A stretch of DNA of 64,000 bases from Bdellovibrionota bacterium FG-1 (GTDB lineage Bacteria; Bdellovibrionota; UBA1018), in contig JBBCAW010000021.1 in NCBI GenBank assembly GCA_051382295.1, positions 64,001 to 128,000 on the forward strand, given 5' to 3'. Below the pieces are notes generated by a model that saw only the letters and a program-made list of their open reading frames with translations, made no database searches and was not told the DNA's origin. How positions within the stretch are numbered: position 1 is the first letter of the stretch; each line of letters opens with the position of its first letter. The position numbers were made by a program, and so were the translations under genes. Shown piece after piece: positions 24,338 to 63,550 of this stretch.

Positions 24338-25363
24338 TTACTTCGATTCTGAGTGTTCTAGCGCTGCAATGTCATGCTGAAATACTTTTGTTCGAATGAG
24401 TTCTTTGAGTTCATTGAAATTAAAAAGACCCTTGTTACATAGGTACCCGTAACGATCAGCAACATCGACGAAGTGCACGAGTTGAGCATAGGTTAGGCCC
24501 GGCACGTAATTTTTCACCTTATTATAGAGATGGAAAATAGTTTGACCGCCACCATGATGACTTTCATAAATCATACCGGCCATTTCCTTGGCTTCAGCTA
24601 GCTTTATTTCGTAGGTCGCCTTTTCTACCGCCGGCCAAACTCCTAGAGTCAGCAAACCCTTGAAAAAAGTAGCGCTCACACTGCCCTCGTTGCCGTAGTT
24701 TTCAAGCTCGCGGTCGTGGTTCCATCTCCAGTTAATCATGCGCACGCTGAGTGTATAGGAGTCGATACAGCCTGAATAGTCCTGTGTGTTGGAGGGTTTC
24801 TTGACTGAAAGTCTCAGTACAGTTTCAGGCACGAGATAATCGGAAATCTGGTCCGAAATCCCGTAATCCGAAGAGGCACCACGATTGTGTTCGACTGCAG
24901 CGAGTCCGGCGTATTCGTGATGAATGAGTCGATATTGTTTCGGCGCAGCCGTCGCGGCGAACCGCTCGGTGTTGCAAAGGATGTGGGGCAGACTATCTTT
25001 GACAGAAATGAAGCCTCGGCAGGTTTTGAATTGTCCATTCACACTTACCTTGAGTTCCTCATCTTGGGTGGCGGCTTCTTCTGCCAGCGTGACTGTCCCA
25101 ATTACAACAGCATGGCGAGGAAGGACTTTTCCCATTCCGCTGGCATAGCTCTCGTAAGTGACCGAGGGAGGAAGGGCTAGGCCACGAGCGCCCCCTTCGC
25201 TGATCCATTTCAAGAGATCCGCACGGATCTCATCGATCCTCATTTCGGAGGTAGCATCGCCGCCTCCGCCAGCGCCAACGCCGGCAAATGCCACGGGCAA
25301 GTTCAGCAAAGACGTGGCAAGCACTCCAAACATAAAATAGCGGGACACGGTAAGGAATTTCAT
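24338..25363 (-). CDS. Secreted hypothetical protein with Gly-rich post-signal motif
   Basis: Signal peptide AFA-GVGAGGGGD; LIHHEYAGL zincin-like half motif. Confidence 0.65.
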   Translation of the reverse strand: MKFLTVSRYFMFGVLATSLLNLPVAFAGVGAGGGGDATSEMRIDEIRADLLKWISEGGARGLALPPSVTYESYASGMGKVLPRHAVVIGTVTLAEEAATQDEELKVSVNGQFKTCRGFISVKDSLPHILCNTERFAATAAPKQYRLIHHEYAGLAAVEHNRGASSDYGISDQISDYLVPETVLRLSVKKPSNTQDYSGCIDSYTLSVRMINWRWNHDRELENYGNEGSVSATFFKGLLTLGVWPAVEKATYEIKLAEAKEMAGMIYESHHGGGQTIFHLYNKVKNYVPGLTYAQLVHFVDVADRYGYLCNKGLFNFNELKELIRTKVFQHDIAALEHSESK

Positions 25364-25411
25364 AAAACACTTTCTCTTTCTGGGCTGCACCAGCGGTCTG
25401 CACTCTAGTGG

Positions 25412-49679: not shown

Positions 49680-52292
49680 TCAGGTATACCGCTGGCTCTG
49701 GTTCAGGAGTGTCGCCGATGCTTGGGCCAAATATGAGGACTCAGCTTGGAGCAGCTTAAAACGCTGACTGAGCTCTCCGCTGCGCTTTAGCCCCACGATT
49801 TGATCGGGGGAGCAAACTGCGCTTCGTTGAACTTCATCATAAGCCTTCATCAGACGATCATCCAAGTCCGCAACGCGGGCAAGGTCACCAGCCGTCATCT
49901 CGGCTCTCATCTGAAGGCGATGATTGCGCTGGCTAGTGAGTGTTTTGCCGACTCCATCCAGGAGTGGCAGGTAGTCCGAAAGGGAATCTGGATCCGTCGG
50001 GTCATCGAGATTGACGTTGTCGAGCATCCTCAGAATGTTGCTGGCCTGTTGGACCGGCTTGAGTAGGTCATGGCAGTAGTTGCGCACTTTTGCGTAGTCG
50101 GTTTTCATCGCAACGGGGGCCTCGTCCGCTACGCTCGTGGCCGGTGTTACCTTCATTTCATCAAAGGGAGGATCCTTATCCCGTATTCCCGTAAGCCACG
50201 TGTAGCGCTCTGGGTTGGCCGGTGCGAGCCCTGTGGCTAGGTAGATCTCCTTGAAGCCCATGGCTGAAATATCACGTGATGCTTCCTCGCCTTGAACGGG
50301 CTTACCGGTTGAGTCGTTGCCGAGGTAGGAGTCGATGTAGACGGGGGTTGACCGGCTCAGCAACTCAGCGGCCCTGAGAAACTCATCCACAGACTTGAAT
50401 GCTAGAAGCGAAAGACCTTTGCGCTTGGCGGCGGCCTTCCATGTGAGGTGTATCAAATCATCATCGTCGATGAGGATGGCATCGGGGGTTGTCGTTTCCG
50501 GTGCTGGGGCGGGAGCGGCCGCCGTGACTGCGATGGGCACAATAGCCGCGTTACCCTTCGGGATGAGCGGTACTCGGAGCTTGTTACAGCGCTCTCGTAT
50601 CGTGGGTTCTTCGTATCGACTGGTCACCAAAATACTCTGGCTAGCAATTCCGAGCTTCTCAATTAGGTCTAAACCTGTTTCGTCAAATCCAAGTAGCTCA
50701 TAGTCACAAAGATACTGAACCAACTTAAGGCCCTTCTGCATCGACTCCGCATGCCACCTGCAAATGTCGGAGGGGGTCGAGAGGTGAATAAGTGTAATGC
50801 CTTGTTCGAGCAACTTCTCGGAGTCTGCCCTTCCCTGCCAAATCCGGTGAATACTGTCGTCGTCGTCGAGAACCACGACGGTTGAGTTGGGCTGTAGCTT
50901 GAGCTCTGCAACGAACCACTCGGGGGGGCTGGTCCGTGGAAGGGTGATGGTCACTGTCGTGCCCTCGCCCACTTGAGAGGTCATCACTAGGCTGCCACCC
51001 CAGGCTTCGCATTGGGTGCGCGCGTGATACAGTCCAAGCCCGTTTCCGTCAGTTTTGCCGTGGGTTTCACCCTGACGCCCAAGCTTCGCCAAAATTTCAG
51101 GCGGGATTCCTTTGCCGGTATCCCTCACCTTGATCACGACTTCGGCATCTCCCCCGTTCAGGGTTACAAAGACCTGGCCAGAGTCAGGGAGTGCTTCTAC
51201 GGCATTATTGATGAGGTTGGACACCATTCGCTTGAACTCACCGGTCTGAATGGAAGCAAATCGGCCATAACTGCGCCGCGTGTCTTCAAACTCGATATTG
51301 ACTCCGAGCTTGGGCCGAAATTGCATGCGCTTCTCACTCACAATGCCGTCCAGGATTGCGGAGAGCAGTTGAATGGTTCTTGGTTCAGCCGTAGTGGTAG
51401 TATTGCCGCTCGCAGATTCTTGGTTAACTTTGATTGCGCGATTCCTTTCGAGCAATGTATTTGCAATGTCCCGGATACGGCCAACGGCGCTGCGGACGAT
51501 CAGGCGGGTTTCTTCAGGAAGCTTTGAGAATTCTTTTTCTGCCATGGTGAGGGCGGAGAGCGGGGATCGGATGTCGTGGGCGACTTGGGAGGCGAGCTGC
51601 GCGATGGCCTCATGAGCGACTTTTTCATTTTTAGTTGTTTGCAGATCAGCGATTGACTTTAAAAGCGCTTCGGCAATGGGGCGGATCTCCACGGGCAAAG
51701 TCATCAGACTTTGAACACTGCCCTCCTGAACGGTCGTCAACACAGCATCAGCTAAGGATCGGCGCACGGATTGTTCCCGGTTGATCAGACTTTTCATCGC
51801 AAGCCAAAGAACTCCACCTGTAAAAGTAAACGAGGTAAGAATAAGGAGGCTGAGCAAAATGGCGGGCTCTAAAGATACACTGGTTACAACGGTGGCCGCG
51901 ATCTCTGAACCATTAGAAACCGGTACTTGCACTCGAATCGACGTTAGTCTGGATAGCCAAGAAGCCACCTTTGTCAGCCCTTCACAAGTTTGATCCCTTT
52001 CCGACTGCCAGCAGATTTGGGTGTTAAAAAATCCTTGGCTCAAATCACGAGCGAGGCCTTCAAGAAACTGTCGATGCTGGCCTGAGACAATGGACTCTTG
52101 GTGCGACTCAACAATTGCTTCAAATGAGGCACGGCGACTCTCTACTAGCTTCATAACCCCAAATAGGGACACAAGCGCCCACATTAAAGTCATGGCGGTC
52201 ACCACCAAATAAAGAGAACGCAGACCGAAGGCTCGAAACTCACTCAAAATATGAGAGTCGTTGGGTGATGAGGGTAGGTCTTTGGCTTCCAT
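49680..52292 (-). CDS. Membrane hybrid histidine kinase with two receiver-like domains
   Basis: 2 TM; QVAHDIRSPL H box, NLINNA, DTGKG, GNGLGL; VVVLDDD and ILIDDD receiver starts. Confidence 0.9.
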   Translation of the reverse strand: MEAKDLPSSPNDSHILSEFRAFGLRSLYLVVTAMTLMWALVSLFGVMKLVESRRASFEAIVESHQESIVSGQHRQFLEGLARDLSQGFFNTQICWQSERDQTCEGLTKVASWLSRLTSIRVQVPVSNGSEIAATVVTSVSLEPAILLSLLILTSFTFTGGVLWLAMKSLINREQSVRRSLADAVLTTVQEGSVQSLMTLPVEIRPIAEALLKSIADLQTTKNEKVAHEAIAQLASQVAHDIRSPLSALTMAEKEFSKLPEETRLIVRSAVGRIRDIANTLLERNRAIKVNQESASGNTTTTAEPRTIQLLSAILDGIVSEKRMQFRPKLGVNIEFEDTRRSYGRFASIQTGEFKRMVSNLINNAVEALPDSGQVFVTLNGGDAEVVIKVRDTGKGIPPEILAKLGRQGETHGKTDGNGLGLYHARTQCEAWGGSLVMTSQVGEGTTVTITLPRTSPPEWFVAELKLQPNSTVVVLDDDDSIHRIWQGRADSEKLLEQGITLIHLSTPSDICRWHAESMQKGLKLVQYLCDYELLGFDETGLDLIEKLGIASQSILVTSRYEEPTIRERCNKLRVPLIPKGNAAIVPIAVTAAAPAPAPETTTPDAILIDDDDLIHLTWKAAAKRKGLSLLAFKSVDEFLRAAELLSRSTPVYIDSYLGNDSTGKPVQGEEASRDISAMGFKEIYLATGLAPANPERYTWLTGIRDKDPPFDEMKVTPATSVADEAPVAMKTDYAKVRNYCHDLLKPVQQASNILRMLDNVNLDDPTDPDSLSDYLPLLDGVGKTLTSQRNHRLQMRAEMTAGDLARVADLDDRLMKAYDEVQRSAVCSPDQIVGLKRSGELSQRFKLLQAESSYLAQASATLLNQSQRYT

Positions 52293-52311: not shown

Positions 52312-52340
52312 TTGACGCATTGTGTCAACAGTGGTATGAA
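52312..52340 (+). promoter_or_regulatory. Sigma-70-like promoter of peptide operon with TTGAC-N7-GTCAA palindrome
   Basis: TTGACG-N17-TATGAA with TG extension; palindrome 52312-52328. Confidence 0.55.
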
Positions 52341-52377
52341 GACGCGGTTCGTTCTAAACTAAAAAGAGGGTATTTTT

Positions 52378-52548
52378 ATGATGAAAATTCGATTGCTTCT
52401 CAGTTTGGTCCTCTCTGCTTTTGCTTTGATGATGGTTCAAGGGCTCGCAAAAAGCACAACCATGATCGCTAAGATTTCAGGAAAGAATGCAGTTATGCTT
52501 GCCGGAGAAGGGCATGGCGGCGATACGGGCGGCTGGGGTAAAGGTTGA
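52378..52548 (+). CDS. 56-aa secreted Gly-rich peptide (candidate precursor); absent from ORF track
   Basis: AGAGGG SD; MMKIRLLLSLVLSAFALMMVQGLAKSTTMIAKISGKNAVMLAGEGHGGDTGGWGKG*. Confidence 0.75.
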   Translation: MMKIRLLLSLVLSAFALMMVQGLAKSTTMIAKISGKNAVMLAGEGHGGDTGGWGKG

Positions 52549-52576: not shown

Positions 52577-54127
52577 GTGTATCTTGGCCGTATTCAATTT
52601 TGGGCATGTCTCATCGCCATGTCTCTAGGGGTAGGAGCGCCAGTGATTAGTCAATCAACTGATTTAACAGTTTCTCCTGGGAAAATTAAAACCCTCACTG
52701 GATCGTTAAATGGCGCACCTTTCATTTTGGATCCGGCCAAGATTTTGGATAGTTCCCAGTGGCATACACTGATTAACTTGGGCGTCACATTGGTTCGTCA
52801 CGATGCAAGTGGAAGACTTGTTGGAGAGGCGGCCAAATCTTGGACTGTCTCTTCAGACTTCAAAACCTTTACCTTTGAATTGAGGCGGGACATCAAAGAC
52901 TCCCAAGGGGCCGTTCTTGACTCATCTGACTGGAAGGCTTCATTTACCCACTTATTACGATCGGGCGGAAGCACTCACAGTTTTGTCTCTGAGTTTTTGA
53001 ATGAGGCTGGCATCGAGACTCCCTCGTCCTATAAATTACAACTCCAACTCAAAAAACCTTATCAAACTTTTTTGCAACGCCTCACTACACCCGAGTTTAT
53101 TCTCGTGCCTAAACGTTCAATCACTCCTGCCAACGTTGTGGAGCTATCCGTTTCCAGCGGCGATTACTTCGTAGAGCGGTTAACCGATTCTCCCCGCAAA
53201 TGCGTACTTCGAGCTAACCGATTTAACCACCATTATTGCGCAGAGCAAGCCGAGCAGGTTGTCCTCGAGCCCATCGCGACATCGAATAAAGAGGCGTTTG
53301 ATAAACTTGCTAGTGACACGTGGCAGTTTTATATTGGAACAGTTCTTCCGACGGACCCTACTTTTCAAGAGTTTAAGAAACAATTGGATACGGGCAAGCT
53401 CCATGCGATTCCCGTCGCGCCAAGTTCAATCGCCGTGTTGATTCTTCAGGATTCAAAACGCCTCATCACCAATAGCCAACGTTTAGCCCTGGCCAAACTT
53501 CTGGGGGAAAGGGCGGCAAAAGATTTTTCGTCGCTTTCCGCAAAATTCGCGCATCAATTGTATCCCCATGGATTTGTGGGAGCACTCAGTCCACAGCGTG
53601 AACAAGAGATTTTTGAGCAAATTCAAAAAGACCCTACGTCGAGTAAAGAGCACCTTCCTAAAAAACTCATCGGTTATGAGGCTGCCGTTAGCTCCATCAC
53701 GGGGGTGGCCCATTGGGTAAAGGAGACGTTAAAAAATGCCGGAGTTGAAGTTGAAACTCATCCGGCAACGGCTAAAGAGTATATCGGTCATCAAAAAGAA
53801 ATCGACCATGACTATCTGGCCTTCACCACTGGCCTCAACTCAAAGGATCCTGCAGGAAGCCTTCTCTATCTGATCAGTCCCAAAGACGGGATCGTTCCGG
53901 ACCCGACGGGGGAACTCAATCGCCTGCTATCCGAAGCGGTGCAAGCAGACCCAGCAAAACGCACCGAACTCCTTCATAAAATATCTGAGGAATTGGTCTT
54001 AAGTGGACGAATTATTCCGATCATGCATTACGGCACCCAAATTTTATCCTCGTCATCCGTGGACGCGCGGCCTCCCACTGACTTTGACGACGAGTTGAGG
54101 TTGGCAGACATTCGATGGAAGAAATAA
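52577..54127 (+). CDS. Family 5 (OppA/DppA-like) solute-binding protein, orphan
   Basis: LDPA, AKSWTVSSDFKTFTFELR, DSQG; GTG start at 52577 gives a signal peptide. Confidence 0.85.
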   Translation: MYLGRIQFWACLIAMSLGVGAPVISQSTDLTVSPGKIKTLTGSLNGAPFILDPAKILDSSQWHTLINLGVTLVRHDASGRLVGEAAKSWTVSSDFKTFTFELRRDIKDSQGAVLDSSDWKASFTHLLRSGGSTHSFVSEFLNEAGIETPSSYKLQLQLKKPYQTFLQRLTTPEFILVPKRSITPANVVELSVSSGDYFVERLTDSPRKCVLRANRFNHHYCAEQAEQVVLEPIATSNKEAFDKLASDTWQFYIGTVLPTDPTFQEFKKQLDTGKLHAIPVAPSSIAVLILQDSKRLITNSQRLALAKLLGERAAKDFSSLSAKFAHQLYPHGFVGALSPQREQEIFEQIQKDPTSSKEHLPKKLIGYEAAVSSITGVAHWVKETLKNAGVEVETHPATAKEYIGHQKEIDHDYLAFTTGLNSKDPAGSLLYLISPKDGIVPDPTGELNRLLSEAVQADPAKRTELLHKISEELVLSGRIIPIMHYGTQILSSSSVDARPPTDFDDELRLADIRWKK

Positions 54128-54978
54128 AGTCGCTCGACGTTCCTCGCCTTCTTGGGCGCTCTCAGCAAAGGCTTCAGGTACCCCTACTTCCGCTTTGGAC
54201 CCTTGCCATGGCGAAGGTGCGAGAACACACAAACACGTCAACGGGGACCGGGTTTGATCGCGAACCGAAGGTCGCCGCCGCAAAAGCATACTCAGAGGCC
54301 TTGGAGCGCTATGTTTATGAGTTGTGGCAAACGACCGGCGTGTCCCCATTCTCAGGCATGGATATACCCTGCCCTGATTCTACTACTGGAATGGCGGCTC
54401 ATTTGATTCCGGAGTTGTCCGCAAAATGCTCTTATTGGGAATGGAAAGAGCGGGCGCTCCTTTTGAAGGCCAGTTGTGGCCTTTACAAAATGAATTTAGT
54501 ACAGCCCCCAAAGTTAGGAAAAATTTTCAACTTACTTTGTAAAGGATTGATTGAGTCAATCGAATGCATGGTGGGAACCGATACGGAGCCGCTTGCTTTT
54601 GTGGCGATTACTCTCGCGGCAGGAGGCGTAATTTTTGGATCGGCCGTAAGATCGAGTGCAAATGATGCCGTATTTTCGGCGCTGGTTGAGTGTCTCAGAA
54701 AGACCGCTTTTGTTAAATATTGGCGTTCCGAGAGTTTCGCGTTAGAGGGGCCCCCACGTTTTGTCCAAACCGTGCGCCATTGGCTTTCTGGGCAAGGAGT
54801 GGCCTCGGCTTTTGGATTTCAAGAAAAGGCTCTAGGCGGTCACAATGATGGAATTCCAATTCAATTTCGGCAGGAGTGCTCGTCCATCATTCGAGTCGGA
54901 ATTCACACCGTGAGTTTTTATTCTGATCCGGCCGACGAACTGCCCAAACTAGGGGATCTCTCGGTTCCGTTGCTTTAA
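54115..54978 (+). CDS. Short YcaO-like protein
   Basis: GTG...AAAKAYSEALERY, STTGMAAH, EWKER, FGSA...ALVE; Pro near C-terminus. Confidence 0.7.
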   Translation: MEEIKSLDVPRLLGRSQQRLQVPLLPLWTLAMAKVREHTNTSTGTGFDREPKVAAAKAYSEALERYVYELWQTTGVSPFSGMDIPCPDSTTGMAAHLIPELSAKCSYWEWKERALLLKASCGLYKMNLVQPPKLGKIFNLLCKGLIESIECMVGTDTEPLAFVAITLAAGGVIFGSAVRSSANDAVFSALVECLRKTAFVKYWRSESFALEGPPRFVQTVRHWLSGQGVASAFGFQEKALGGHNDGIPIQFRQECSSIIRVGIHTVSFYSDPADELPKLGDLSVPLL

Positions 54979-55088: not shown

Positions 55089-55259
55089 ATGCCGACTATT
55101 ATTTCAGTGGCCTTTGCTAAAGGTGGGGTGTCCAAAACCACTTTGGCTTGGGCGTTATCTTCAATTCTTGGTCGTGAGCACCCAGTGCTTGCGGTTGATA
55201 TGGACTCGCAGGGAAGCCTGACTGCAAAATCTTTTCCGTCCTCAGTACCCATACGTTAG
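55089..55259 (+). pseudogene. Truncated ParA/Soj ATPase
   Basis: MPTIISVAFAKGGVSKTT...AVDMDSQGSLT then stop at 56 aa. Confidence 0.8.
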
Positions 55260-56249: not shown

Positions 56250-56334
56250 TGGTGCTCGCGACAAGACTCGAACTTGTACGCCTTACGGCACTGGTTCCTA
56301 AGACCAGCGTGTCTACCAATTCCACCACGCGAGC
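56250..56334 (-). tRNA. tRNA-Leu (TAG)
   Basis: 85-nt cloverleaf with variable arm, CTGGT-CTTAGGA-ACCAG, encoded CCA; upstream TTGCGC-N17-TAGTAA. Confidence 0.97.
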
Positions 56335-56404
56335 ACTGTTTGCTTTACTAAACCATTTCGGTGATTTGCGCAACATTTGCCTTTTCTAATGCCTCCTTTT
56401 TTGG

Positions 56405-57721
56405 TCATTTTTTGACCACTGTAGCTGTACTGTAGCTGAGAGTCCGGCCTAAGCTCGGGTCATTACTGGGATGCTGGCACATTTTTTCCTTCAAGCGCTC
56501 AACATCCACGGACCCTCCGTAGTGTTGCCGATTGACCGCAGGATCATGCCCCAGTACCTGACTCGCCTCTTCCACAGAGAAACCACTCCTCTGTTTTGCG
56601 TGGGCGCTGAACGACCGCCGCAGATCATAAGGGATGAAACGCAGCCGATCAGCCATGACCCCTTCTCTGTCCGCAGTCCACATCCCTGCAGCCTTGAGAA
56701 GTCCCCTCCAGCACTCCCTGATGGAAGTGACCCGTTGCCATGGCACCCCAGTCAACCCGCCCTTTTTCCGGTCTTTGGTCACGAAGACAAAGTTAGCGGG
56801 ATGTGGAGTCGGATCGCCCTTAACAAAACCAACGGACACAACCCGTGGCAGACTATTTAAAATCAGCAGAGCTGTGTCATTGAGATATACTTCGCGGTCC
56901 TTGCCCCACTTCGGCTTCCAGCCAAGTCCGTGCTTGGTGGGACACCTTGGCTTTGACCTGAGTCGAACCCAACGATCAACCACGTCAGTCCACTCCAGGT
57001 GAATCAGCTCCCCAGGCCGCATGCCGGTCGCATACATCAAGAGCACGAATGCCTTGACGTTGAATCCGCTTTTGGCTGTATACGCGGTGGAAACCAGTTT
57101 CTGAATCTCCTCCGATGAAAACACCACGGCCCGCGCCTTTTCCTGCGGCTTCACCTTGATGGGCTCGATCTCATCTGCTGGATTGGAAACCAGCTCCTTT
57201 CGCTTCTTGAACCAGCGAAACACCTTCTTCACCAACTTGAGGTAGTTTTGGGCGGTAACGGCTGAGATCTCCCTCTTAGCAATCCTTTCTTGAAGGTGAT
57301 CCCTGAACGCCAAAACATGGGCCTCCTTGAGTCGCCTAAAGTTGGACTCACCCGCCAACTTTGAAAGCTTCCGGAAACAAGTGCGAATCATGGCATCCTC
57401 TCCATTCTTCGTGTTGCCGGTTTTCTCAAAGCCGGTCTTTTCCAGATACCTATCCACCGCTAAATCAATGGTGAGGTGCCCACCGGGCCCTGCCCGGCGC
57501 TGCATCTTCTCCATCTCAGTGTCCGTAAAAAAACCCCGGATCAGGTCAGCCTCTTTGAGCTTGGCATTTCGCAGTGCCTCCTTCTCTGACTTAGCCACCG
57601 AAGCCTGAATGAGACTACCGTCCGGTAAAGGGTATTTCCAATACCAGCGATCGCAGTCCTTTCTATAATAGACATGAACCTCCGGAATATATTCCATCGG
57701 CACGTCAATTTTATTGAGCAT
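56405..57721 (-). CDS. Tyrosine recombinase/integrase
   Basis: TGMRPGE, K, YDLRR, LGH...HY; N-terminal arm-binding-like and SAM-like domains. Confidence 0.92.
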   Translation of the reverse strand: MLNKIDVPMEYIPEVHVYYRKDCDRWYWKYPLPDGSLIQASVAKSEKEALRNAKLKEADLIRGFFTDTEMEKMQRRAGPGGHLTIDLAVDRYLEKTGFEKTGNTKNGEDAMIRTCFRKLSKLAGESNFRRLKEAHVLAFRDHLQERIAKREISAVTAQNYLKLVKKVFRWFKKRKELVSNPADEIEPIKVKPQEKARAVVFSSEEIQKLVSTAYTAKSGFNVKAFVLLMYATGMRPGELIHLEWTDVVDRWVRLRSKPRCPTKHGLGWKPKWGKDREVYLNDTALLILNSLPRVVSVGFVKGDPTPHPANFVFVTKDRKKGGLTGVPWQRVTSIRECWRGLLKAAGMWTADREGVMADRLRFIPYDLRRSFSAHAKQRSGFSVEEASQVLGHDPAVNRQHYGGSVDVERLKEKMCQHPSNDPSLGRTLSYSTATVVKK

Positions 57722-57733
57722 GATTGATCTCCT

Positions 57734-58060
57734 TTACGAGAGATCTCGGAAGCCTTCGACCCGAGCATTGTCGAGGAAGGTATCGAGATCCTTCTTGAGA
57801 AAAATCAGCCCCTCTTTGCTGAACTTGAGGAACGTCAACTTGCGGGAACGGGTTGCATGGTAATGGATGCTCTCGCGTGAGCATCTGCAGTACGCCGCAG
57901 CCTCATTCTCGTTGAAGACGTGGTGCCTCAAGACCAGCTGTAAAACCATGAATTTGTCAAAGAGCGATAGGAGCTTGGAAAGCGGACCTTCTTCGGGCTC
58001 CTGCATCACGGTGATACCTTGGAATACGGGGTCAATTCGAGTCAAGTCATCATTGCTCAT
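57734..58060 (-). CDS. Excisionase-like HTH protein
   Basis: FNENEAAAYCRCSRESI...FLKKDLDTFL directly upstream of integrase. Confidence 0.7.
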   Translation of the reverse strand: MSNDDLTRIDPVFQGITVMQEPEEGPLSKLLSLFDKFMVLQLVLRHHVFNENEAAAYCRCSRESIHYHATRSRKLTFLKFSKEGLIFLKKDLDTFLDNARVEGFRDLS

Positions 58061-58082
58061 TTAAGTTTCTCTCCGACTTAGG

Positions 58083-58123
58083 CGGCACCCCCCGAGAGTC
58101 ACGAAGACTCCCGGGGGGCTGCC
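58083..58123. terminator. Strong GC hairpin upstream of xis-int
   Basis: GGCACCCCCCGAGAGTC-ACGAA-GACTCCCGGGGGGCTGCC; no clear U tract. Confidence 0.4.
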
Positions 58124-58130
58124 TTGGTAT

Positions 58131-58505
58131 TCACCCAGTTGACTGGAGGTCGTCGATCATTGCGCGGACTTTGACCATGATGCGGGCCTCGAGCTCATTC
58201 GTCGTTTTCATAAGCGTCGAGGCCTCCGCTTGCGTGATCTCGTCCTCTCGCTCCAAGACGGATTTGTAGTAGGCCTCCTGATCCACTTTGAGCTGGCTTA
58301 CAAGGGCTTCAATAGCGGTACGGAGGCCTGAATCACCGTCTAAAGCCTCACACAGCAATGAAATAATCACGCCCGTAGCTTCGCTGTAACCATCACGCCA
58401 AATCTCCACTTCTTCGCTCCGATTGTTTGTTTGCTGATTATTAGCCGCGTGCCATTCTTCGCAGTTTTGCTTCTCCACTTCAGAGTCGATTTTCAGTTCC
58501 TTCAT
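58131..58505 (-). CDS. Hypothetical helical protein
   Basis: ATG immediately after DUF5131 stop (MKELKID). Confidence 0.55.
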   Translation of the reverse strand: MKELKIDSEVEKQNCEEWHAANNQQTNNRSEEVEIWRDGYSEATGVIISLLCEALDGDSGLRTAIEALVSQLKVDQEAYYKSVLEREDEITQAEASTLMKTTNELEARIMVKVRAMIDDLQSTG

Positions 58506-58506
58506 T

Positions 58507-59325
58507 TTAAATAATTCCTTTTTTTTCAACGTTTTTGGGAAACTCAAGCCAAGTGCGACCATCGAGCGTTCGACCGCCCTTCGCTCCTTTTGGATTGGCC
58601 TTATTTTTAATAGTTGGGTCGAGCGGGTCTGGGTTGTTGCTTTTTTTTCCCCATTGTTTAAATAAAAACGGAACCCCAGCCAAAACGCACTGATAGCGGA
58701 TATTTTTGACCCAGGCTGGATCCATTGGCCGTGCCTTTGGACCTGATTCACCGCCGACGATCACCCAGTTGATGCCGTTCAGATTAAGGTCGGGCAGTGG
58801 TCCGAGCAGTGGTTCCAGCGACAGGAACTTGACCTGGGCGCCAGTCAAACGGAGGTGATCGATCCGACTGGTGTAATCGTTGTTTTCAACGGAGACGCCC
58901 ATCCAGAGGTTTTTGGGCCAGGGGAGCATAGGACTGAGTGCGGTCAGGCGTTCTTGGCGCTTCGTGAGAACCTGGTAGGTGTGCCGTGGCGTCTCGATCA
59001 CTGTCTTGAATACCCCTTGAATGAACTCCAACGGTACATCCTTGTGAAAAAGGTCCGACATCGAATTCACGAAGATGCGTCGTGGCTTCCGCCAGTGCTT
59101 TGGTCTTTCAAGTAGGTCGCGATGGAGAGTCAGCTTGAATCCGTTACTGTAACGACAGCTATCGATGTGCATTCTCCCCTTTTCGCAACTGCCAATCTCC
59201 ATCCGCTTATTGTGGATCGCCTGCTTTTCCGCATAACAGTTTTTGCAACCATCGCTGACTTTGTCGCAACCGGTATGGGGATTCCAACTTAGGTCGGTCC
59301 ATTCGATTGAAGTTCTTCCAGACAT
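58507..59325 (-). CDS. Phage Gp37/Gp68 (DUF5131) radical-SAM-like protein
   Basis: TSIEWTD..WNP..GCDKVSDGCKNCYA, NSMSDLFH, LTKR, EPLLG, GGESG, FKQWG. Confidence 0.92.
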   Translation of the reverse strand: MSGRTSIEWTDLSWNPHTGCDKVSDGCKNCYAEKQAIHNKRMEIGSCEKGRMHIDSCRYSNGFKLTLHRDLLERPKHWRKPRRIFVNSMSDLFHKDVPLEFIQGVFKTVIETPRHTYQVLTKRQERLTALSPMLPWPKNLWMGVSVENNDYTSRIDHLRLTGAQVKFLSLEPLLGPLPDLNLNGINWVIVGGESGPKARPMDPAWVKNIRYQCVLAGVPFLFKQWGKKSNNPDPLDPTIKNKANPKGAKGGRTLDGRTWLEFPKNVEKKGII

Positions 59326-59474
59326 TAATATTCCTCCTCATCACCCGAGAGCGGCCCGGGTGGCATTAGGTCAAGCCCCGTTCGCCGGGGCGTACAATTT
59401 ATGATCAGATCAGGGCTTTTTGAATTCGATGCACCTCCTTAAAATTGATGGTCGGAAAAAGTTGCCGCTTTTGC

Positions 59475-61610
59475 TTATTCATCGTTGTCCTCTTCCATGA
59501 TGTTCGGCGCGGTGTCAGCGCTACAGATGTTAAACGCCGAATCTTTCAGAAGGCGCTCAAGACTGTCGGCCTTGCCGTCCTTGTTCCAGCACCACGGGTG
59601 ACTCCGGTTCACGTCTACTTTTGCATTTAATACAGGGTAAAACTCTCGAAGAGCTTGTTCGAGGAGTTGTTTAGCGCGATCGCTTATTTGAATAATTAGG
59701 TCTTCCGGACATTCGATGAGAACAGCGTCGTGAAGCTGAAAAATGAGCTTAACGTCAGTCTCACGAAACTCCTGATCAAGGAGGATGAGCGCCCGCTTGA
59801 ATACTGAGGCCGCCGATCCTTGGATAGGCGTGTTACGTAAGAAGTTTCGAACCCAAGGGGAAATACCCGCGTTTTTAGGAATATACCGACGCAACCCGGT
59901 TACCGTGGTTGCAAATCCGCGATTGAGACCAACGCACTCCTCCTCGTCAAGCCTCGCCTTGATAACGGGGAACATGTCCATGAATCGTTCACGCTGCTTT
60001 CGCGCCTCAGATTCAGAGATTCCAAACTTCAGTGAAATGGATCTCGGCTGCATATTATAAATCACCGCGAGTACGAAAATCTTCATATTGTCGCGGAGGT
60101 CTTTTCTCTGGTTCTTGAATTCTGTTGGATCAAGATTGATTTCTTCCGCAGTCAGTTGTTCCTTGTAGAATTTCTGGGCTATAACGGCATAAACGTCGCC
60201 TTGATTGTAAGCGCTGATTAGGACCGGGTCATTGAACTCAGCAGCCACGACCCCAATCTCCATCTGGGAATAGTCGAGTTCAAAAATCGCCATTTCGGGG
60301 GGGGCCGTTACCACCGGACGAAGGTTTCTGTCGATCCCACCCAGATTTGGGTTTTTGCAGGAGTTTCTGCTCGTGGCTGTTGCGAGTTGAAGATGAGCTG
60401 GGTGGTGTCGTCCGTCTTTCCCCCGGAGTGCCCCGTAGATCCACTCACTAGTGAGGATACGCGACATTGCTCGGTACCTAAGCAAAACGCCCACCGCAGG
60501 ATGCAGGCTGCTGTGCCCATAAAGTATTTTATCGGTCAACACGATTCGTCCAGCGCGGGTTTTCTCTTTGAAATGATGAATCAGATTTAGATTTTGAAGT
60601 GCTCGGGCAATGTGATCGGGGTTGTCTGGAGAATCCAATCCGTGAGTTTTCAAATTGATGGCGTAGTGATCGCTGGCCCGAGTGCAGGCTTTGGTTAGCT
60701 TCTCAAGGCTATCTTTGGTGATGTGTACGCCGGTCCATTCCATTCGTGCGTTAGCGGGAATGAAGGGAAACTCGATCTTATGGAGGTGGCTAGAGATTCC
60801 TGATTTTTCGATATCAGGTTGTTGGGCATGATAAAGTCGAAGCGTCCATTCCGATGGGGCAGCACTGGAGTCAATGAGACCTTTTGGCATGGGTACCCCA
60901 GGGGGGAGCGGCGATTGAGCTTCAGGTTGTACGCCGCCGTAGGGGAACCCCAACTTGTAATGGGCACATTGTCCTGCCAGCGAGAGAGCATGGTCCCGCT
61001 TTTCAGCCATGAGTCGCTTAGCTGCGATATGCTCAGGGCTGTCGTCCGCTGGACCTGACACGCGGGCATGGAAGAGCCCCAAGGTCTGTGCAGCGGCCGC
61101 AATATGGGTGTCGTAGAATGAGTGGAGGACGGGGTCGATGCCACAACTCCAGAGGGCAAACAGAGCCTTCTTGAAGTCGTGGAACACGAACTTAACCCGG
61201 AGGTTCAGAAGTGCCTTGGTGGCTTCGATTCCGGCGGGATTCCGTAGGTCGATCACATGGCGATGGAGAATGCCGGGTCCATCGGGATTGAGGGGGTCAT
61301 CGACCCAAACGCAGAGGGAGACAAACAGAGGGCGGATGCCGCGAATGTCTCGCCAGAGGGGGCCATTCTTGAGTCTGAAGGCAGCTCTTTCATGTTGCAC
61401 CTCAACATGGACCCCAATTGCTCGAACAGGAAGTCCGCTGAGTTTGCGGATCAGAGCCTCGGCCGCCTCTTCGCCACCGGCGACCTGGATTTCGCCTGGT
61501 TGAGGGAGAGGGATCCCGACAGCGATGTCGAGCTGGTTTTTGGGATCTGAGTCGTAGTGGTCCAGTTCCTGAAGGCGTTGTGGCCAACGGCCGAGGAGGT
61601 TGATGGTCAT
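59475..61610 (-). CDS. Family A DNA polymerase (phage type)
   Basis: TATSR...PNL, motif A DYSQME, motif B R...K...L...Y, NTPIQGSAA, motif C LHDAV. Confidence 0.92.
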   Translation of the reverse strand: MTINLLGRWPQRLQELDHYDSDPKNQLDIAVGIPLPQPGEIQVAGGEEAAEALIRKLSGLPVRAIGVHVEVQHERAAFRLKNGPLWRDIRGIRPLFVSLCVWVDDPLNPDGPGILHRHVIDLRNPAGIEATKALLNLRVKFVFHDFKKALFALWSCGIDPVLHSFYDTHIAAAAQTLGLFHARVSGPADDSPEHIAAKRLMAEKRDHALSLAGQCAHYKLGFPYGGVQPEAQSPLPPGVPMPKGLIDSSAAPSEWTLRLYHAQQPDIEKSGISSHLHKIEFPFIPANARMEWTGVHITKDSLEKLTKACTRASDHYAINLKTHGLDSPDNPDHIARALQNLNLIHHFKEKTRAGRIVLTDKILYGHSSLHPAVGVLLRYRAMSRILTSEWIYGALRGKDGRHHPAHLQLATATSRNSCKNPNLGGIDRNLRPVVTAPPEMAIFELDYSQMEIGVVAAEFNDPVLISAYNQGDVYAVIAQKFYKEQLTAEEINLDPTEFKNQRKDLRDNMKIFVLAVIYNMQPRSISLKFGISESEARKQRERFMDMFPVIKARLDEEECVGLNRGFATTVTGLRRYIPKNAGISPWVRNFLRNTPIQGSAASVFKRALILLDQEFRETDVKLIFQLHDAVLIECPEDLIIQISDRAKQLLEQALREFYPVLNAKVDVNRSHPWCWNKDGKADSLERLLKDSAFNICSADTAPNIMEEDNDE

Positions 61611-63550
61611 TGGTTGACCTCCTCCATGGTGGTTGCGGTCTCGACTGTCCCAATTTCCCTTAAAGAATAATTAGTATTAAAGGGATTTTGGGACACCTGA
61701 CTGTTTTGCTTCAGCCATCTTGCTGCGGTCGAGGAGGAAATATTCAGCTTCCTGGCCGCCTTCCTCATGGAAAAGCCGCCAAACATCAGCGCTCGAAGTT
61801 CTTCGATCTGCTTAAGTCTCTGAGTAATACGTGGCCTCAGCAGCCCAAACTCCTGATAGGCGCGTTCAATGGTCGGAAGTTCGATAACCGGGCCCACTTC
61901 CAGGGTGAAGTCAGCCATTTGGAAAAAGATAATTTCGCGGGCATGAGTATAAAAACGACACCGTCCAACGGCTTGGAGAATTGCGTCAATCTCGAGAACA
62001 CGATGATGAATACTTACGTCTTTGGCGAGATCGCTATACCGATGTTTGTGATCAATGGTCGGTATGCGATTTTGACGACTATCGTAGTGAAAATCGACCG
62101 CGATCTGATCGCACTCAGCAATGTTACCTTGGGTGGATTCACGCAAGGCAGATGCTGGAAGATTAAAAGAGTTCAGGCAATAACAGGCATCGTAGTCGGT
62201 AAAAATATTAATACCAATTACGGCGTAGTGGATGATCGGAACAATGTTGGAGTTGGGTTTCCTTAGGTCGTCAGTGACCTCAGTTGGAAAACTAACATCA
62301 AATCCAAGCTGTTTAAGTGTTTTTCTGAGATAATTAGCGCATGCCACCTTAAACTTCTTTTGGGAGACAAGGAGTGTGCTCTTGCCTGATTTGATGTTGA
62401 AGGCAATCTTGGCAGCGATGAAGTCAAGAATTCGATGCATGTTGCTCCGGAAATACTTTGCTGCACCCGAGCGGAATTTTAGATTAAATATTCGCGTGTC
62501 AGTGTGTCTAAACTGAAGTGATTCGAATGGAGATTCAAGGTCAGGCAACTGAAGCTGCTTCTTTACGAAGTCCTTCGGCAGGTTGGCGGCGAGCACCAGG
62601 ATGTCGAACCGATCAAAGTTTTGGCGTACTACAAAGTTGATATTCCCGTACTTGTCCTTCCAGCGATCTTGCTGTTTGCTTTGTTGGAAGAGGGATACGA
62701 GATGAGCAATATTCTCAAAGTTATGACCGAATTCATCAACCCCATGCCGTTGAATTTCTAGACCAACCTGATTCAGACCTGATGGAAAAATCCAGCCAGT
62801 CATTCGAAGTGATCGGGTGTCGGCACGGAGCAACGTACTAAGGTTTTGCACCCACACGGCCTTATCGGCATCAAAAGTCGGATATTCTTCCTCCGGCTGT
62901 GGAAGCGTCCTTAATGCGTTAATAAAGATTTCAATAGTATTGGCAGAAATAGTGATCGGCTTTAATGTTTTCGTTACGCCACCTTCATCGAGTATCAAAA
63001 GTACCTTTTTTGGCTTCAAAATATCAATGATCTGGCTAAGTATCGTCGGAGCATTGTTCAGTCGCTGATCGGTACAAAGGATGAATTGACGATCCTTGAT
63101 CTTTTCTTCAAGAGGGGGCCACCAGGTGCATTCCGAGTCTTTCTTTGGACACTTCGAACACAAAGTTTCCCTCGCGAGCGACGAGCAACCACGAGTTTCT
63201 AAAAACTCCCATTGCTCGTTGAGAGGACCGCAAAGTCTCGTCGGCCGAGCGCGCAATACAAAATATTCGATTGGAAGAGCGGCGGCCTGAAGACTGTGCA
63301 GGCGTTCAGTGATGATCGACCACGCACAGGCAACGTAGATGACAAGGTCGTAAATCCGGTAAGTCTCGGGATCCAAGATCACCTTGTCTGCAACTGCCGA
63401 CTTTCCCACACCAATGGGTAAACGAAGAAGAAGCCGGATGAACCGTTGCAATTGCTGCAGGATCCAGGCGGCGGTGAGGGTGGCCCGAAACTTTTTCAGG
63501 CCACCTTGATCGACAATATTATTGGATTTGTTGTCGCTCACCGTCATCAC
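61607..63550 (-). CDS. SF2 helicase-like protein with Cys cluster and C-terminal HTH
   Basis: PIGVGKS, LILDE, QAVGRCR; C..C..CSKC..C; SMRKAARKLNISSSTAARW. Confidence 0.65.
   Translation of the reverse strand: MMTVSDNKSNNIVDQGGLKKFRATLTAAWILQQLQRFIRLLLRLPIGVGKSAVADKVILDPETYRIYDLVIYVACAWSIITERLHSLQAAALPIEYFVLRARPTRLCGPLNEQWEFLETRGCSSLARETLCSKCPKKDSECTWWPPLEEKIKDRQFILCTDQRLNNAPTILSQIIDILKPKKVLLILDEGGVTKTLKPITISANTIEIFINALRTLPQPEEEYPTFDADKAVWVQNLSTLLRADTRSLRMTGWIFPSGLNQVGLEIQRHGVDEFGHNFENIAHLVSLFQQSKQQDRWKDKYGNINFVVRQNFDRFDILVLAANLPKDFVKKQLQLPDLESPFESLQFRHTDTRIFNLKFRSGAAKYFRSNMHRILDFIAAKIAFNIKSGKSTLLVSQKKFKVACANYLRKTLKQLGFDVSFPTEVTDDLRKPNSNIVPIIHYAVIGINIFTDYDACYCLNSFNLPASALRESTQGNIAECDQIAVDFHYDSRQNRIPTIDHKHRYSDLAKDVSIHHRVLEIDAILQAVGRCRFYTHAREIIFFQMADFTLEVGPVIELPTIERAYQEFGLLRPRITQRLKQIEELRALMFGGFSMRKAARKLNISSSTAARWLKQNSQVSQNPFNTNYSLREIGTVETATTMEEVNQ

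Follow-up and report, generated by a model that had tools for sequence, protein, structure and literature searches.

Introduction

Pheromones made of modified peptides are considered to be typical of Gram-positive bacteria. In the Gram-positive pheromone loci agr and comQXPA, a precursor with a variable core, its maturation enzyme and the cognate kinase are encoded together; maturation is carried out by AgrB or ComQ, and a polytopic receptor kinase binds the peptide directly, with autoinduction that depends on cell density. In Vibrio, LuxQ is a sensor kinase that depends on the binding protein LuxP. Systems of the LuxP/LuxQ type, examples of which are given in PMC11113362, resemble the locus described here in that the gene of a transporter-less binding protein lies beside that of a kinase with two transmembrane segments. 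The same source cautions that an sbp gene and a kinase gene lying side by side do not in every case have linked functions.

On the side of peptide modification, the bufferins, as described in PMC11626156, combine a precursor carrying a Sec signal with a modifying enzyme that has no signal and that recognizes the mature part of its substrate, three traits that the locus studied here shares or is predicted to share. Their own features are an MNIO plus DUF2063 chemistry acting on Cys, a folded product and control by a sigma factor. The stand-alone YcaOs responsible for MCR thioamidation in methanogens or acting on uL16 in E. coli (PMC13063428) have, like the enzyme of this locus, no RRE or E1 partner.

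Here, we analysed a 64,000-nucleotide stretch of contig JBBCAW010000021.1 of Bdellovibrionota bacterium FG-1, hereafter the window, in which an original prediction had singled out a 56-aa secreted peptide. We propose that this ORF specifies, within a four-part cassette, the precursor from which a modified peptide signal is made. The whole chain, which would run from Thr50 cyclisation through Sec export to sensing by a binding protein and a kinase, is given a probability of about 0.55.

A short gene for a secreted-type precursor

The ORF is found at 52378-52548 of the window (+) and its 56-aa translation ends in GEGHGGDTGGWGKG-stop. It consists of a predicted Sec signal (residues 1-24), a spacer or recognition segment (25-47) and a Gly-rich core with G48-D49-T50 (codons at 52519-52527, +). 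The original prediction was of a real secreted-type precursor with its own promoter, Shine-Dalgarno sequence and Sec-type signal cleaved at GLA|K, and these elements stand, the Sec signal as a prediction. Indeed, a GAGGG Shine-Dalgarno sequence (52366-52370, +) is located 7 nt 5′ of the ATG, and the relatives have AGGAG or GGGAG at the same place. The signal, as judged by eye and with a crude hydropathy rule, has K3, R5, a hydrophobic stretch at 6-20 and the G-L-A|K site, and the predicted cleavage site of all four homologues reads small(-3)/A or G(-1)|K or R. The tail had been described as 14 Gly-rich residues with single His, Asp, Thr, Trp and Lys residues, to which one Glu is to be added. 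The second junction that had been proposed, xLA|G, is present in the window peptide and is only partly kept elsewhere, with VIA-D, TLSR-G, IAK-Q, VAR-N and TAK-N in its place. The Trp of the tail occurs in 2/4 homologues and was dropped as a key residue for that reason.

Upstream of the ORF, between the kinase and the peptide operon, a promoter-like element TTGAC-N7-GTCAA ... TG-n-TA spans 52312-52340 (+), with TTGACG at 52312, a spacer of 17 nt and TG-G-TATGAA at 52332-52340. The promoter that had been predicted is also visible by comparison: TTGAC-N7-G(T/G)CAA followed by TG-n-TA is kept in 4/4 related upstream regions, the invariant columns being TTGAC, G.CAA and TG.TA. A generic promoter scan did not list the site, whose -10 match is weak. 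We also considered the palindrome as a proven operator and rejected this idea. It is not specific in the genome, where 11 copies are observed for 4.8 expected with a similar excess at other spacings, which makes an operator reading doubtful, and it is seen in 0/60 co-directional cassettes. It may rather correspond to two back-to-back -35 boxes.

No family was found in Pfam or NCBIfam for the peptide, nor for four other precursors scanned, and a tblastn search with the peptide in the genome of the window returned the self-match only. The exact 56-aa product nonetheless exists as a called gene (P0167) in a protein collection. In addition to its translation, the ORF is supported by homologues at loci L003, L007 and L040, which have a short signal-type ORF at the same place behind the same promoter, and by a model of its complex with the YcaO. 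Altogether, the small ORF is almost certainly a real gene. We also tried to read the peptide as the frameshifted N-terminus of the binding protein. This was ruled out because the binding protein has its own likely start and signal-like segment, each of its homologues likewise carrying its own signal.

Relatives of the precursor and conservation of G-D-T

Relatives were searched in 61 related genomes and 127 genomes of the class, and the unit was found in two other genera. A metagenome scan gave three loci, one of which extends to the peptide (L040, the fourth locus overall), and a pattern scan of GTDB recovered the contig of G018 only and missed G117. The close precursors number four, because 17 close homologues of the binding protein and about 15 of the YcaO, present in protein collections, are not traceable to DNA; 'invariant', as used for these precursors, thus refers to n = 4.

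At each relative locus, a short signal-type ORF lies immediately 5′ of the binding protein gene. In L003 (genome G018) this ORF is 94 aa long and contains three 18-aa repeats, each ending in G-D-T-P-W-G-[RK]. L007 (genome G117) encodes a 53-aa peptide that ends in GGGDTPTRRV, and the L040 peptide ends in GGDTQGRV. The G-D-T triplet is the sole invariant stretch of the tail (alignment A7, 4 precursors); the His of the tail is not conserved among relatives. By analogy, the triple G-D-T unit of L003 resembles multi-core RiPP precursors, and the locus presents the features of a RiPP precursor, namely a short ORF beside a modifying enzyme, a conserved core and, in one relative, several cores.

When a profile was built from the three relatives alone, the window ORF ranked second among 42,598 small ORFs of the genome with an E-value of 2.6. 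Taken alone, this E-value has no significance; what counts is the rank, obtained at a position that synteny had fixed beforehand. A peptide profile search over proteins of 29-165 aa returned the four input peptides only.

The original prediction had itself raised two doubts, that the tail might be a Gly-rich trafficking motif such as that found after the signal of a long secreted protein, or that the ORF might be a gene stub. The stop codon and the position are kept at 4/4 loci, contrary to the loss of frame or stop in relatives that it would have counted against itself. As the downstream gene also has its own signal peptide, the stub is unsupported. The Gly-rich post-signal motif is real and occurs in 16 long ORFs, but none of them carries the core pattern G-D-T-x(1,2)-[WGR]-[GRK]; this pattern, defined after the fact, is found in 1/1,755 small signal-like ORFs, which is the window ORF. 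We also weighed a reading in which the peptide is an unmodified exported protein, trafficking motif or stub, and the YcaO acts on the binding protein, the kinase or a housekeeping protein. The existence of the 16 long proteins and the capacity of stand-alone YcaOs to modify folded proteins, as reported for uL16 in PMC13063428, speak for it, as does the restriction of our homologue search of the peptide to 29-165 aa. Yet the conserved stop and position, the triple repeat of L003 and the core pattern count of 0/16 in the long proteins make it quite improbable, and so do two results given below: the core residue tracks the YcaO clade, and the complex model, which passes, puts the invariant residues in the active site. 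A modified precursor remains our preferred reading.

A minimal YcaO and its modelled complex with the peptide

The third gene of the operon (54115-54978, +), which overlaps the stop of the binding protein gene, encodes a stand-alone minimal YcaO of 287 aa that has no signal peptide; a signal-bearing appearance was noted for 2/106 YcaOs only. Its Pfam YcaO (PF02624) match (E 0.0034, 17.2 bits) is below the gathering cut-off of 25.7 bits, a cut-off that its paralogue on contig C120 passes (53.2 bits), and Pfam YcaO is matched at E≤0.01 by 68 of the 84 aligned family members. TIGR03604 did not match the window YcaO, and the distant YcaOs score far below the cut-off of that family. A profile search collected 19 proteins at E≤1e-10 and 145 at E≤0.001.

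The predicted structure (pLDDT 95.8) has YcaO structures as its top Foldseek matches. The best structural match is McbD (Z 18.6, rmsd 3.7, 265 residues aligned, model 10-287 against chain 11-396), which is also matched by profile (E 1e-11). The top 14 structural entries are all YcaOs (Z 11.2-18.6) and the next entry falls to 6.9, which places the enzyme in the YcaO fold. Stand-alone YcaOs come second (Z 15.8-15.9), in an alignment that ends before the C-terminal tail (model 281).

The ATP/Mg residues of the ExxER motifs and the Glu of the third helix are present (E61, E64, R65, E109, E112, R113 and E192). Among these, E61, E109, E112 and R113 are invariant in 106/106 YcaOs, and the position of E64 is E or D in 106. 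For McbD, PMC6395948 proposes the carboxylate of the C-terminal Pro396 as the general base, with E167 as a ligand of Mg and T148 and Q264 in assisting roles. Residues T148, E167 and E261 of McbD align to T90, E109 and E192, and the C-terminus of the window YcaO is in register with McbD 396. All 17 close rows of the alignment have a P-x-x end at one column, the tail of the window YcaO being P-L-L and not P-x-P. Azoline-forming YcaOs, such as McbD of the microcin B17 synthetase, LynD and TruD, cyclodehydrate Cys, Ser or Thr with ATP. The enzyme has in common with them the fold, the ATP/Mg glutamates, the T148-x-G-x-x-x-H motif, the register of the C-terminus and a Gly-rich, here predicted, substrate. 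It differs from McbD-type enzymes by being about 110 aa shorter and by an Arg (R195) at the position of Q264, where R is found in 76/106 YcaOs and Q in 6/106. At the position of T148, the 17 close rows, two of which are one protein, have Thr in 7 cases and Ala in 7.

We then consider the co-fold of YcaO, precursor, ATP and Mg, which scored 0.82, the best of 3 controls scoring 0.01; contact agreement between runs is at least 87% and the pLDDT of the partner at least 67. The score mark is reached by 116/157 solved pairs and 2/215 mismatched pairs, a calibration that is roughly applicable here. As like complexes have been solved (6gos, 6peu), the pass may reflect memory. What the model adds is that the triplet found to be invariant independently is the one that it places at the catalytic site. 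In the modelled interface, peptide residues 33 and 35-56 take part, to the exclusion of the signal, and the C-terminal L287 of the YcaO contacts G48, D49 and T50, with E192 contacting D49. For segment 35-47, the model suggests a role in binding the YcaO and not one as a second site for signal peptidase.

The peptide is very probably the substrate of the YcaO and, if so, an oxazoline at the Thr is the probable product. Two residues had been named as plausible YcaO targets. The Thr gains from being part of the invariant G-D-T, from its tripling in L003 and from its modelled position in the YcaO active site. An amidine formed by an N-terminal Gly freed at the xLA|G junction was rejected, because the residue following the junction is not conserved in relatives (G, D, G, Q or N).

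A more serious competitor, which we hold to be unlikely without dismissing it, keeps the peptide as YcaO substrate and signal and changes the chemistry: ATP-dependent cleavage at D49-T50 as in MusD, amidine formation, or ring closure through the side chain of the Asp. Several observations are in line with it. McbD Q264 is replaced by Arg and T148 is often Ala, Asp49 is as invariant as Thr50, the Asn-core clade described below shows other nucleophiles in the family, and the structural matches include MusD (Z 15.3). Moreover, PMC13063428 lists amidines, thioamides, proteolysis and nucleobase-like products among known YcaO activities. In contrast, the azoline former McbD is the best structural and profile match, the Thr directly follows the residue placed at the C-terminal carboxylate in the model, and Cys or Thr is found in the last 12 residues of 51/54 peptides of the neighbouring large clade. 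The Thr oxazoline is for these reasons the chemistry retained in the mechanism below.

The binding protein, the kinase and the layout of the cassette

The peptide gene comes first in the operon, followed by the genes of a family-5 solute-binding protein (SBP) and of the YcaO, and the kinase gene is divergent. The SBP gene (52577-54127, +; likely GTG start at 52577 after AGGA; Pfam SBP_bac_5 E 5.9e-22) encodes a protein whose N-terminal signal or anchor is a hydrophobic segment at residues 6-24. The kinase is a hybrid sensor histidine kinase of 870 aa from a likely ATG (49680-52292, -; HATPase_c E 2e-22, HisKA E 4e-4). Its transmembrane segments 26-44 and 131-149 flank an outside domain of about 85 aa and are followed by HisKA, HATPase_c and a receiver-like tail, recognized by eye, for which Pfam gave no match. 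The kinase aligns with those of L007 and L040, sensor domain included, and a divergent kinase with a homologous sensor domain is found at the 3 loci whose sequence extends far enough. An orphan SBP and a divergent sensor kinase, repeated phylum-wide, thus form with the peptide and the YcaO a unit larger than the one originally predicted.

The window cassette contains no response regulator. A permease, taken as a same-strand ORF of 200-450 aa with at least 4 transmembrane segments within 2.5 kb, was found at 0/93 SBP loci. This sets the cassette apart from Opp/Dpp/Nik ABC importers, which have permease and ATPase genes with the SBP, although the SBP might work with a permease from another locus. 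At least 12 close paralogues of the kinase are present on other contigs, with 48-73% identity over the catalytic part, indicative of a large family expansion. A 97-aa stretch that is 94% identical to the window SBP was also seen in another genus, in a gene truncated at a contig end (G095:C123, L008:80-535); recent transfer or binning carry-over are possible explanations.

In NCBIfam, the SBP comes closest to nickel and staphylopine binders, with scores far under their cut-offs (54.8 of 393 bits). These matches bring into consideration a modified peptide that would carry a ligand or probe stress in the periplasm, for example as a metal binder, and the loaded state of which, rather than its abundance, would be read by the SBP and the kinase. 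Known Sec-exported RiPPs include metallophores, as stated in PMC11626156, and the window core contains a His and an Asp. We nevertheless find this improbable. Indeed, the His is not conserved, the hypervariable clade-specific cores and the four different cassettes of this one genome are better explained by private signals, and at other places in the genome this SBP-kinase module goes with different short leaders and different enzymes.

With a private peptide signal as the preferred reading, the cassette can be compared with the systems introduced above. McbD-type clusters have an E1/RRE partner, a dehydrogenase, a protease and an exporter, none of which belongs to the cassette; its precursor has a Sec-type signal, and SBP and kinase genes stand where immunity and export genes would be. 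The E1-like/RRE C protein, the usual dehydrogenase and the exporter that define linear azol(in)e/TOMM clusters are lacking among the flanking ORFs. Inspection of the ORFs of the close loci likewise revealed no E1/RRE, dehydrogenase, TfuA or exporter. The cassette departs from the bufferins in having a YcaO, an SBP and a kinase, together with a G-D-T core that is short and unstructured; the peptide has no Cys, and no MNIO (DUF692) or DUF2063 genes occur among the flanking ORFs scanned. Stand-alone YcaOs differ in having no neighbouring small precursor, and the window-type cassettes are without TfuA on ORF inspection. Compared to agr and comQXPA, the host is Gram-negative, the chemistry is that of a YcaO, export would be by Sec and the apparent receptor is a periplasmic family-5 SBP; the putative maturase is the YcaO instead of AgrB or ComQ, and the kinase has two transmembrane segments. 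Finally, with respect to the LuxP/LuxQ type, the same operon would itself encode the ligand, as a peptide that is then modified, and the SBP is of family 5.

The cassette would work like a modified-peptide pheromone locus, and it falls outside the TOMM/LAP, bufferin, agr-type and ABC importer definitions. A search of titles and abstract openings returned no published description of such a cassette.

Proposed mechanism

We propose that the cytoplasmic YcaO would bind the precursor through residues 35-56 and, using ATP, would cyclise Thr50 onto the carbonyl of Asp49 to give a methyloxazoline (-18 Da). The modification would take place in the cytoplasm ahead of export; in bufferins, the Sec signal of the precursor was described as dispensable for modification (PMC11626156). 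The peptide would then be exported through its predicted Sec signal, as for bufferins, possibly with further trimming. Outside, the orphan SBP would bind the modified peptide and likely present it to the co-encoded kinase, a sensing role suggested by gene linkage. The signal could report cell density or the presence of the element.

What sets this locus apart is its G-D-T clade, the relative with three cores and the placement of the triplet at the active site. These features make it a precise target, with a three-residue core, a natural triple repeat, a modelled pose and one predicted mass change, and among the clades this one lends itself best to a test. If such signalling extends over the phylum, as considered below, it would mean modified-peptide quorum sensing in Gram-negatives, carried out with a partner-free YcaO of 280 aa and possibly with a new Asn or Asp chemistry. 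This would bear on how Bdellovibrio-like bacteria coordinate their behaviour or control mobile elements. The minimal YcaOs are also a new source of small enzymes for peptide modification that do without a partner protein.

Distribution and diversity of the cassette in the phylum

By profile search, minimal YcaOs are present in 89/401 sampled genomes of the phylum. The distant set comprised the best 100 of 116 matches, the 16 weakest being left out; a YcaO was called at 99 of these loci, that of L117 being lost at the contig end. At the 99 loci, an adjacent SBP was found in 86 cases, a kinase in 87 and both in 80. When the 68 loci far from contig ends are considered, these numbers are 61, 63 and 59. 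An automatic rule placed a short signal-like ORF before the SBP in 62/80 cases, as compared with 31/330 control genes; some of these automatic picks are wrong, though few, and curation by hand gave 73/80. Minimal YcaOs thus nearly always come together with the genes of a secreted peptide, an SBP and a kinase, which makes signalling a directly testable hypothesis.

The trees of YcaO and SBP agree (Mantel rho 0.67, n=89), and the clade of the window is a 4-row group with full support. Before peptides were counted against the tree, L070, L074, L084, L093, L105, L114 and L124 were dropped for unclear precursors. Gly and Cys are enriched in the peptide ends. Asn is found in the last 10 residues of 20/22 peptides of one YcaO clade versus 13/54 elsewhere, and Cys in the last 15 residues of 3/22 peptides of this Asn-type clade versus 36/54 elsewhere. 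On the tree, Cys changes 13 times for about 27 under the null, and Asn 14 times for about 26 (0/500 shuffles each), the Asn label having been chosen after seeing the tree and shared descent contributing to the residue clustering. Among other labels, Ser clusters (0/200) and Glu does so weakly (7/200); K, D and R do not. That specific residues appear to track YcaO clades is what an enzyme-substrate link predicts.

The Asn-containing cores (G-N, P-N-K, P-D-N) are paired with a YcaO clade ending in RF(V/L)Y or FxF, whose members are L049, L052, L058, L083, L092, L100, L113, L133 and their kin, and the C33 enzyme of the window genome (G000:C33). This hints at an Asn-directed backbone chemistry in this clade, and the existence of such cores in a sister clade (20/22) indicates that the family is not limited to azolines. 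It is quite possible, if somewhat less likely than not, that private peptide signals extend over the Bdellovibrionota, with dozens of minimal YcaO clades each writing its own Thr-, Cys- or Asn-directed backbone modification on a Sec-exported peptide and dedicated orphan SBPs delivering the products to kinases.

The genome of the window holds four such cassettes, on contigs C21 (the window), C33, C54 and C120. The three others (G000:C120:3747-9368, C54:41675-46452 and C33:10554-15206) each have an SBP, a kinase and a different short secreted precursor, ending in ...GGGGGTCDF (C120), ...GRICEGV (C54) and ...RPIGNIG (C33). The C120 cassette includes a sigma-54 response regulator.

Cassettes with an SBP5 and a related kinase and without a YcaO were also observed. 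Their peptides (L143:7078-7176, -; L144:8406-8498, +; L145:8528-8650, -) are 30-40 aa long, have no signal and share a leader of the (I/V)-(I/E)-(I/D)-D-L-D type. Neighbouring genes include MFS transporters, a B12 radical SAM enzyme, an M19 peptidase and a weak match to DUF4135, which we take to be LanM-like. The SBP-kinase sensing module thus seems to serve RiPP chemistries other than that of YcaOs as well.

In addition, conjugative pilin- and VirB4-like ORFs, recognized by eye, flank the cassettes of L043, L051, L060, L066, L071 and L078, which suggests that several distant cassettes are carried on integrative conjugative elements.

Genomic neighbourhood in the window

Just after ycaO, a 56-aa N-terminal fragment of ParA/Soj preceded by a Shine-Dalgarno sequence is found at 55089-55259 (+; Pfam AAA_31 E 9e-10). 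This truncated gene suggests that the cassette lies within decayed mobile DNA. Further downstream, at 56250-63550, a tRNA-Leu is followed by an integrase, a DUF5131 protein, a family-A DNA polymerase and a 647-aa ORF with an HTH tail, and this region is an integrated element beside the cassette.

Finally, the window ORF at 24338-25390 (-) and 15 others encode the long secreted proteins mentioned above, whose signal is followed by a G-x(1-3)-GGG(G)-[DN] start. The window copy belongs to no Pfam family. The Gly-rich start of these 16 proteins resembles the Gly-rich cores of some cassette peptides.
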